In this document: positions 41,426-43,483 of the stretch, in pieces | Layout: the number at the start of each line of letters is the position of its first letter | Numbering within the stretch: position 1 is the stretch's first letter | DNA from: Escherichia coli | GTDB lineage: Bacteria; Pseudomonadota; Gammaproteobacteria; Enterobacterales; Enterobacteriaceae | Length of the DNA stretch: 64,000 bases | Strand: one strand, 5' to 3' | NCBI RefSeq assembly: GCF_044324875.1 | Contig: NZ_CP172185.1 | Program-made: the position numbers and the translations under genes | The notes under the pieces: generated by a model | Seen by the model: the letters and a program-made list of their open reading frames with translations, nothing else | Told to the model about the DNA's origin: nothing | The model's database searches: none

Positions 41426-41499
41426 ATGAAGGGTCAACCAAAAGCCAGCTAAGGATTGTCTCTTTGATGACCTTACGTCTGGCTTCCAGTGCCTGAGGT

Positions 41500-41720
41500 G
41501 AAACCATACTGATATGTTGACATCCTCCACGCCCTGAAGGACGTGGATCCCTGCTACGTTCAGGCTGTCGCCTAAATCATTTCGGGGGGTTCCTGCTTCA
41601 ACGAGCGGCCTGACTGCACCATCTCTCCACAGGCAAGAACGGCGTGCCCCGCCGCTAAAATGTTACGAGCGCCATTTACATCGGCGTTCGCTGTATATCC
41701 ACATGCCTGGCATCTGAATT
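41500..41720 (-). ncRNA. Predicted omega (re)RNA of TnpB, overlapping tnpB 3' end and right end of the IS; putative guide = flank just beyond RE (about 41501-41516)
   Basis: Inference from established TnpB biology (guide RNA derived from tnpB 3' end/RE); presence of RE hairpin at 41527-41546. No transcript evidence. Confidence 0.35.
41527..41546. repeat. IS right-end subterminal hairpin
   Basis: 5-bp + 2-bp stem with single mismatch and TGAA tetraloop; near-identical copy at other end of element. Confidence 0.7.
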
Positions 41721-42768
41721 TACTTTGTGACAGGCGATTTTCTTTCGCTGTATGACCACAGCACGCGCAACGCTGGCTTGTGTACGCTGGCGGAACAGCA
41801 AGCACCTGACCGCCACGCCAGAGCTGCTTGTACTCAAGCTGGCGGCGCATTTCATACCAGCCCTGATCCAGTATCGAACGGTTTAAACCTGATTTTGCCC
41901 GGACATTGCGCCCCGGCTGGCTGACCGTACCCGCTGCTGACTTTGACATGTTGCTGACCTTCAAATCCTCAATGACTATCATTGCGTGGTTTTTGCTGAC
42001 GGTCGTTGTGACTTTGTGAAGGTAGTCCCTGCGGATATTTGCGATACAGGAATGCAGTCGCTGTATTTTGCGTTTCTGCTTCTGCCAGTTATTGCTGAAT
42101 TTGACCTTGCGGCTTAACTGTCGCTGAAGTCTCGCCAGCTTCTTCTGGTTTTTCTGAAAACTGTTTACAGGCTCAAAGACTGTGCCATCTGACAGCGTGG
42201 CGAGTTTAGCCACGCCAGCATCCAGCCCGACCATTGATGCTGAAGGGTGAACCGGAGTTGATACTTCATTTTCAGTCTGAATACTGATGTACCACTTACC
42301 GCAGGACTGGCTGACAGTGACATTTTTCACAACACCCGTGACCTGACGGCTATTCCGGTAGCGCATCCAGCCAAGTTTCGGCAGAAAAATACGGCTGTTT
42401 TCCTGATCGAGCTTAACGCCCTGCGGGTAGCGGAATGCATCATTCTGTCCCCGCTTTTTGAATCGGGGAAAAGCAGCCCGCTTCTGGAAGAAGTTTTTGT
42501 AAGCCCGCTCAAGGTCTTTCAGTGACTGTTGCAATGGCTGTGAGGGCGAATCTTTAAGCCATTGCGTTTCAGTGGCGTTTTTCCACTCAACCAGCCAGGA
42601 AGCCATTTTCCCGTAAGGGATGTATTTATTACCGGCCTCATGATTCTCATTCTGACGTGCCAGAGCACGATTGAAAACGAAACGACATGCGCCTGCGAAG
42701 CGCCTCATTTCACGCTCCTGTTGACCACCGGGTCTTAACTGGAATTTAAATGCCTGTAGTCGTTTCAC
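41572..42768 (-). CDS. tnpB: TnpB (IS605 OrfB) RNA-guided endonuclease, apparently intact
   Basis: 398-aa [39 protein letters not shown]...; RuvC-I D (MVGLDAGV), RuvC-II E (MIVIEDLKV), Zn finger CACCGH...CQACG and RuvC-III D ([10 protein letters not shown]) all present. Confidence 0.92.
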
Positions 42769-42775
42769 AGGCCAA

Positions 42776-43390
42776 ATGATACTTTGGTCTGTGAGAAAAG
42801 AAACCGATATCCGGCGTGGAAGGCATTGTGTTTTCCTGATGCATGTTCACCAGGTCTTTGTCACCAAATACCGACGTCAGATTTTTGACCATGACGCGAC
42901 AGAAAAACTACGCACTTACTTTTCAAATGTATGTGCTGATTTTGAAGCTGAACTGGTTGAAATGGATGGCGAACCAGATCACGTCCATTTGTTAATTAAC
43001 TATCCTCCCAAACTGGCGATATCCAGTCTGGTAAACAGCCTCAAAGGCGTATCGGGTAGGTTACTGCGACGAGATCGACCAGATATTGCAGTCAGGTATT
43101 ACTACAAAGGCGTTTTGTGGAGTCCTGGCTATTTTGCCAGTAGCTGCGGAGGTGCGCCAATATCCGTCATCCGCCAATACATTGAACAACAGCAAACACC
43201 TGATCAGGTGGAAAACCGCGCCTTATATCCCCGCCCTGAAGGACGGGGTTTTACGGCGCACCGGATAAACCAGGCCAAGCGTATGCTGGTTGATCAAATA
43301 ATATCCCCCAAGCGCAGCAATATTAATATTCACCTGCAATGGGTCGATATCTGGCTTAAAAATATTGTGTTTCCTCCCTTCATCCAATAA
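42776..43390 (+). CDS. tnpA: IS200-type Y1 (HuH) transposase TnpA, ORF reading through the IS left end into flanking DNA
   Basis: ORF contains KYRRQIF, HuH motif HVHLLI and catalytic-Tyr region [11 protein letters not shown]...QYIEQQ; typical TnpA ends soon after, but here no stop occurs until 43388-43390, beyond the end hairpin (which encodes [10 protein letters not shown]). Confidence 0.8.
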
Positions 43391-43483
43391 GGATTCCATT
43401 AACTGCAAGTGCGCATGATTAATTTCTAAGAGACACTGTGATTTTGCATAATGCACACCTTTACTTTGGTTTTCACTATGCAC
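43223..43483 (-). pseudogene. ytfA-like ORF, 3' end replaced by IS-end sequence (possible TetR-like C-terminal fragment)
   Basis: 86-codon frame from GTG 43481-43483 ([73 protein letters not shown]...) runs into the IS hairpin ([13 protein letters not shown]). Identity with K-12 ytfA is from position and memory only. Confidence 0.5.
43239..43258. repeat. IS left-end subterminal hairpin
   Basis: CCCCGCCCTGAAGGACGGGG, same architecture as 41527-41546. Confidence 0.7.

Follow-up and report, generated by a model that had tools for sequence, protein, structure and literature searches.

The right end of an IS609 copy in Escherichia coli ytfA and the predicted omega RNA and guide of its TnpB

IS608 and IS605 of Helicobacter pylori serve as the model for the "peel-and-paste" transposition carried out by TnpA. 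In IS608, the left cleavage site, TTAC, is recognised by the tetranucleotide AAAG situated just 5′ of the left hairpin (PMC3201880). For the second protein of such elements, TnpB, a characterised relative is that of ISDra2 from Deinococcus radiodurans, whose omega RNA overlaps the 3′ end of tnpB together with the right end of the element, stops at the ...UCAA boundary and is followed by a guide derived from the flank (PMC8612924). A role of IS605-family TnpB in homing has also been described (10.1101/2023.03.14.532601, 10.1101/2023.11.20.567912). Closest of all to the locus considered here is the "IS609" TnpB purified in a recent study (PMC12781874, Nucleic Acids Research, 2026), for which Table S2 gives the motif TTAT and Table S3 a 206-nt omega RNA scaffold with the 3′ end GGAGGAUGUCAA; its text reports no activity for this TnpB and does not single it out as active. 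In the literature on IS609 TnpB (insQ), we found no experimental description of a native E. coli omega RNA.

The window, by which we mean the whole 64-kb stretch of E. coli DNA analysed, contains a copy of the same element that is catalogued as IS609 in ISfinder and whose nuclease RefSeq names "RNA-guided endonuclease InsQ/TnpB". The interval 41500-41720 is the right end of this ordinary, catalogued IS609 copy. With a probability of roughly nine in ten, this right end encodes the omega (right-end) RNA of the TnpB nuclease of the element. Such an assignment is suggested by the TnpB motifs in the translated sequence, a conserved structured RNA that reaches the element boundary, a putative guide taken from the flank, and a motif that coincides with the transposon target site and is absent beside the resident guide.

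How does the locus compare with the described systems? With ISDra2 it shares a TnpB homologous over its whole length, the placement of the RNA and the identity of the motif with the transposon target site. On the other hand, the ISDra2 motif is TTGAT whereas that of the window copy is TTAT, the two scaffolds have only short motifs in common (for example, GAAUC before the last hairpin), and tnpA and tnpB, co-oriented in ISDra2, are divergent in the window, the gene order of IS605 from H. pylori. The window TnpB is 86% identical to the IS609 TnpB sequence given in PMC12781874, and the scaffold aligns with the published one over 206 nt with no gaps and has the same 3′ end. Compared with that IS609, the window copy has its own guide from the ytfA flank, a tnpB stop that comes four codons too soon and a few base changes in the scaffold, several of which are compensatory.

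An IS609 copy within ytfA and its ends

The window is E. coli chromosome, and the open reading frames around the element are those of cycA, fklB and ytfB to one side and of yjfZ, rplI, rpsR and priB to the other. Judged against the uninterrupted site of strain Nissle and five independent copies, the element is a complete IS609 (IS200/IS605 family) of 1,748 bp at 41517-43264. Its "top" strand corresponds to the minus strand of the window, so that the left end is at 43264 and the right end at 41517. The insertion sits inside ytfA, a gene for a TetR/AcrR-family regulator, and splits it. Remnants of ytfA flank the element at 41426-41516 and 43265-43483; in Nissle, the gene is intact and encodes 215 aa. 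The 2.2 kb around the right end are 100% identical to strain 118UI, in which RefSeq annotates, at the same place and within a split TetR/AcrR gene, an "RNA-guided endonuclease InsQ/TnpB family protein" and an "IS200/IS605 family transposase". The corresponding position in O157:H7 carries, in RefSeq, an "IS200/IS605-like element IS609 family transposase", and the DNA is 98% identical to other E. coli copies whose tnpA is annotated as "IS609 family transposase". Assignment to the IS200/IS605 family follows from a Y1/HUH TnpA, subterminal hairpins on the same strand, a fixed target and near-identity to IS609. The two hairpins (41527-41546 and 43229-43248) have one orientation, and terminal inverted repeats are absent.

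Alignment of both window flanks to the Nissle empty site (...CATACTGATGTG/ATAAACCAGG..., starting ATAAACC after the junction, here marked by a slash) delimited a 1,748-bp insert with a one-base ambiguity, G41516 or G43264, and revealed no target duplication. We compared five copies of IS609, each at an unrelated locus (ytfA, yedK, ydcO/ydcL, sadB and yeaQ/DUF1869). On the tnpB strand, all five read 5′-(T or C)TTAT/CCGGTGCGCCGTAAAACCCCGTCCTTCAGGG ... CCACGTCCTTCAGGGCGTGGAGGATGTCAA/ followed by unrelated flank, with a shared terminal ...GGAGGATGTCAA; the window copy on this (minus) strand reads 5′-TTAT/CCGGTG...GGATGTCAA/flank. Since the base after TCAA varies (C, T or G) while the C after TTAT is constant, IS609 occupies 41517-43264 and its target is TTAT; the same observation rules out ends shifted by one base (G41516/G43264). 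The target, which is also the candidate transposon-adjacent motif, lies at 43265-43268 on the minus strand (TTTAT if 43269 is included). TTAT precedes the left end at five of the five independent insertion sites, the base before it being T or C, and it is retained in the empty site. A reading of this DNA made from its sequence alone had placed the right end at 41517 and the hairpin at 41527-41546; the former is borne out by the Nissle site and the five insertions and the latter by the sequence itself. The same sequence-only reading had proposed TTTAT as a possible motif, rightly, but had located it at about 43275-43279, where the tnpB strand reads CTTGG; TTTAT on that strand is 10 bases away, at 43265-43269, where the plus strand reads ATAAA.

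The ends resemble those of IS608 in several ways. Both elements have a TCAA right end that is cut 10 nt 3′ of the hairpin foot (41517-41520, minus strand, in the window), and in both the target is a tetranucleotide that lies 5′ of the left end and is not duplicated, although the target here is TTAT, 16 nt from the foot of the left hairpin, and in IS608 TTAC, at 19 nt. The left-end subterminal hairpin (43229-43248, minus strand) scores 15.5 bits on the minus strand versus 8.7 on the plus strand as a partial match to the covariance model described below. Directly 5′ of its foot lies AAAA (43249-43252, minus strand), the likely counterpart of the left guide tetranucleotide of IS608: a change from AAAG to AAAA would parallel that from TTAC to TTAT, in agreement with the five insertion sites.

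The right-end hairpin reads CCACGCCCTGAAGGACGTGG on the plus strand at 41527-41546. The minus strand gives CCACGUCC-UUCA-GGGCGUGG, a stem that includes one G-U pair; the plus strand has a C-A mismatch at that position, as would be expected if the minus strand is active and transcribed. One base near this hairpin varies. The chromosomal IS609 copies of E. coli carry G at 41549 (GGGAUCC on the minus strand), but A (GGAAUCC) is found in a plasmid copy, in the published scaffold and in over 90% of homologues. The base is part of the tetranucleotide on the 5′ side of the right hairpin, the counterpart of which in IS608 guides right-end cleavage.

Scaffold and guide of the predicted omega RNA

Homologues of the right end were sought in one genome per species with the pattern GCAGGAACCCNCCGA-N(45-75)-GGAGGATGTCAA. 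At least 120 loci with related RNA modules turned up in Proteobacteria, Acidobacteria, Verrucomicrobia, Chlamydiae, Nitrospira, Bacteroidia and Rhodococcus. Among the 120 modules listed, 35 adjoin the 3′ end of a near-full tnpB, 30-64% identical to the window TnpB (median 61%); upstream of nine there is no tnpB, and the others either are cut by contig ends or have a tnpB fragment only. Each of the nine is preceded by at least 600 nt without TnpB similarity; these could be right ends standing alone, or miniature derivatives in which the RNA module is all that is kept. The right-end hairpin of four acidobacterial loci has an insertion of about 25 nt; the insert resembles a nested hairpin and makes the last RNA stem longer.

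A covariance model, R1, was built from 48 homologues of other bacteria, the window being excluded. This kind of search had been proposed by the sequence-only reading, and across the 64 kb it returned a single full-length match, 41517-41660 on the minus strand, with 128.2 bits (E=7.9e-32), a score that is partly circular because the homologues were collected with two motifs derived from the window, which for that reason have no covariation power themselves. The helices between and upstream of the two search motifs are free from this circularity. At the left-end hairpin the match was only partial, with 15.5 bits. The best Rfam matches obtained at a permissive threshold in 3.2 kb around the element, RAGATH-18, HgcC and sot0042, are likewise all on the minus strand and all inside 41504-41687. 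All three families are RNAs associated with TnpB that overlap tnpB 3′ ends. Together, the R1 match, the covariation and the three sub-threshold Rfam matches uphold the earlier expectation of an RNA on the tnpB strand that crosses the tnpB 3′ end and the right-end hairpin. RAGATH-18 (RF03064; 41590-41633) reached 29.5 bits against a gathering score of 44.9, HgcC (RF00062) 25.2 against 50 and sot0042 (RF02656) 18.1 against 88, and we dropped assignment to any of them, every score being below its gathering threshold. The class has the invariant motifs GCAGGAACCCNCCGA and GGAGGAUGUCAA, and no Rfam family matches it at threshold.

The well-supported core of the scaffold is about 144 nt long (41517-41660, minus strand) and ends in GGAGGAUGUCAA; it is backed by the R1 match, covariation and the fold. 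Folded as a single sequence, the core has an energy of -60.8 kcal/mol (z=-2.1). RNAalifold, applied to 61 non-redundant sequences, predicted 21 pairs, 17 of them compensatory. We also wrote out a structure from the window fold plus the RAGATH-18-like stem and used as a control the same helices with their 3′ partners slid along. In the 61 sequences, the tested structure had 87.3% paired cells versus 42-48% with shifted partners, and its covariation score of 0.372 (0.06-0.10 shifted) was reached by none of 500 shuffles. The signal is carried by three helices. The first (helix 1; CGGCG/CGCCG, 41640-41654, minus strand) lies in the tnpB coding region and has four of its five pairs changed on both sides, with 89.8% of cells paired. 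The second (helix 8; 41555-41580, minus strand) runs across the tnpB stop codon (AUGAUUUAGGC...GCCUGAACGU), and in the 61 sequences all 10 of its pairs change on both sides. The third is the right-end subterminal hairpin (helix 9; 41526-41547, minus strand), with 95.1% of cells paired and five of nine pairs changed on both sides. Between the first two lies a RAGATH-18-like element (helices 2-3; 41592-41633, minus strand), consisting of a CCUGU/GCAGG stem around GAG..CUC and an inner stem; its outer stem is neither supported nor contradicted by covariation because it is almost invariant.

Might the hairpin and the stems near it be nothing but single-stranded DNA signals for cleavage and strand transfer by TnpA, with no functional RNA involved? 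IS608 TnpA uses the same DNA elements, namely the right hairpin, a TCAA 10 nt beyond it and the tetranucleotide on its 5′ side; the left end, for which an RNA is not expected, has a nearly identical hairpin, and the covariation of the right-end hairpin is explained equally well by TnpA-DNA binding. However, strong covariation extends to the helices at 41640-41654 and 41555-41580, reported as more than 100 nt inside the element and beyond the approximately 45-56 nt that IS608 TnpA needs at the right end. G-U pairs are tolerated on the minus strand, which argues against a purely DNA role too. So do the ISDra2 TnpB-RNA structures (8EXA/8H1J), in which the homologous region is an RNA scaffold. We therefore give an explanation by DNA signals alone almost no credence. 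Under the omega RNA reading, the right-end hairpin would have two roles, as the TnpA binding site in single-stranded DNA and as the last stem of the omega RNA.

On its 5′ side, the scaffold may continue into the tnpB coding sequence (41661-41722, minus strand), as suggested by the gapless alignment of this segment with the 5′ part of the 206-nt scaffold in Table S3 of PMC12781874; the extension to about 41722 would follow from that published construct, and RNAalifold and the covariation test found no covarying helix upstream of 41654. Two features of the single-sequence fold deserve mention. The stem GUUCUUGC/GCAGGAAC was rejected, as its 5′ side is not conserved whereas CCUGU, pairing with the same GCAGG, is nearly invariant. 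A long-range pairing, ACAUUU/GGAUGU, has its 3′ side fixed by the search pattern and its 5′ side in coding sequence. A scan for consensus promoters near the scaffold yielded no promoter-like site, the counts being no better than those in shuffles, and downstream of the guide the scan detected no terminator.

Directly 3′ of the right-end TCAA lies the predicted guide segment CAUAUCAGUAUGGUUU (41501-41516, minus strand), copied from the ytfA remnant. The 16-base guide proposed earlier, CATATCAGTATGGTTT (41516 to 41501), agrees with the bases that follow the end on the tnpB strand. A guide length of 16 nt is taken by analogy with ISDra2, and the guide could reach about 41497. As expected of a guide derived from the flank, the bases after TCAA are unrelated among the five insertion sites. 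In the 64-kb window, the 16-mer CATATCAGTATGGTTT has no second exact match and only two near matches, with three mismatches each and neither preceded by TTAT, so that a second target is absent there. At the occupied site, the resident guide match is preceded by ...GTCAA and TTAT is absent. The guide itself differs slightly between copies of the insertion. At 41514 the window has A, giving the guide CAUAUC..., but the base is G in the O157 copy and in the Nissle empty site (guide CACAUC...). Consequently, the guide of O157 is a perfect match to the Nissle empty site, and the window guide mismatches the Nissle-type target (CACATCAG...) at guide position 3.

Integrity of TnpB and TnpA

The tnpB gene (41572-42768, minus strand) has a GTG start and encodes 398 aa. 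The protein scores 388.7 bits with NCBIfam guided_TnpB (cut-off 100), and residues 3-376 align to the ISDra2 TnpB structures 8EXA/8H1J with E=3.7e-55. The RuvC catalytic D/E/D and the zinc-finger CxxC...CxxC motifs are recognisable by eye in the translation. Between E. coli copies, dN/dS of tnpB is 0.13-0.35, which indicates that the gene is under purifying selection. It is intact in five of six copies examined, the copy L003 being frameshifted. A change at 41574, private to the window among the copies compared, introduces TAG four codons ahead of the usual stop, so that the product has 398 aa against 402 in other copies; the helix at 41555-41580 is nevertheless kept because a C-G pair becomes U-G. 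There is a second private substitution at 41586, the sole variable base of the otherwise invariant GCAGGAACCCNCCGA.

The tnpA frame (42776-43390, plus strand; 204 aa) encodes a Y1/HUH transposase and continues beyond the left end into flanking sequence. Residues 13-138 cover the full NCBIfam transpos_IS200 profile with 143.7 bits (cut-off 55), and the translation carries the motifs HVHLL and RQYIEQQ. In the window and in two other copies, there is no stop codon within the element and the frame runs past the left-end hairpin. The O157 tnpA, with a TAG stop after ...QQQTPG, is the sole one with a normal stop (five further copies, L003, L004, L005, L006 and L008, compared). The copies at ydcO/ydcL (the K-12 locus) and sadB have internal stops in tnpA, and RefSeq flags tnpA in 118UI as a pseudogene. 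These defects imply that the excision that TnpB would counter may be rare or absent. The start codons of the two divergent genes are 7 bp apart (42768-42776), so each promoter must fall in the coding sequence of the other gene; the consensus scan at 42768-42776 found no convincing promoter.

Such decay raises the question of whether the locus is a fossil, that is, a sequence with the form of an omega RNA gene but no working TnpB-RNA complex, whose conservation merely reflects recent shared ancestry within E. coli. The pseudogene flag and internal stops of tnpA fit this view, as do the frameshifted tnpB of L003, the loss of four residues from the window TnpB, the changes in the scaffold, and the screen of PMC12781874, which did not single out IS609 TnpB as active. 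Furthermore, 1,745 of 5,426 genomes have the insertion fixed at one and the same site, which does not require mobility. Yet the remaining tnpB copies are intact and show the low dN/dS given above, the premature stop preserves its helix, and the window sequence reaches 128 bits with a model of distant homologues without a single broken helix. We therefore regard a decaying fossil as quite improbable and retain the reading of the right end as an omega RNA gene serving an intact TnpB.

Possible mode of action and its meaning for E. coli

For the ytfA copy, the steps from transcription and processing to cleavage and the outcome of homing, as well as the guide length, can be outlined by analogy with characterised relatives. 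The omega RNA would have minus-strand sequence and be either the 3′ portion of the tnpB transcript or a product derived from it. It would fold into the conserved scaffold, which measures at least some 144 nt (41660 to 41517) and ends in GGAGGAUGUCAA, and continue into the flank to provide the guide of about 16 nt, CAUAUCAGUAUGGUUU. The TnpB-RNA complex would then recognise double-stranded DNA in which 5′-TTAT is followed by a match to the guide, CATATCAGTATGGTTT, and cut it with its RuvC site. TTAT and the guide match should be adjacent only where the element is missing, since the donor joint left after excision by TnpA would be the same as the ancestral empty ytfA allele. The resident copy would be spared because its guide match is preceded by ...GTCAA instead of TTAT. 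Cutting of a vacated site, followed by recombinational repair from the sister copy, would restore the element.

Of 5,426 complete E. coli genomes, 1,745 (about a third) contain the junction between the right end and the flank. The O157 copy at the same site differs by 1.5% in tnpB, and for this reason the insertion in ytfA looks old. If TnpB and its RNA are active, the element could in principle act as a natural allele drive, the empty alleles of the other two thirds, to which the guide of the O157 copy corresponds exactly and that of the window copy with one mismatch, being cut and converted when they meet occupied ones upon conjugation or transduction. We consider this rather unlikely; if true, it could explain the long retention of the element despite the decay of tnpA.

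The TnpB-omega RNA system at this locus is already known, a textbook locus in a catalogued insertion sequence, and knowledge of TnpB systems is unchanged by our finding. The omega RNA and its guide could be placed correctly by a reader working from the sequence alone. What the analysis provides for this TnpB system resident in E. coli is base-exact ends and motif together with the predicted guide and scaffold, mainly of value for annotation. With these at hand, native TnpB homing in E. coli could be studied without heterologous parts.
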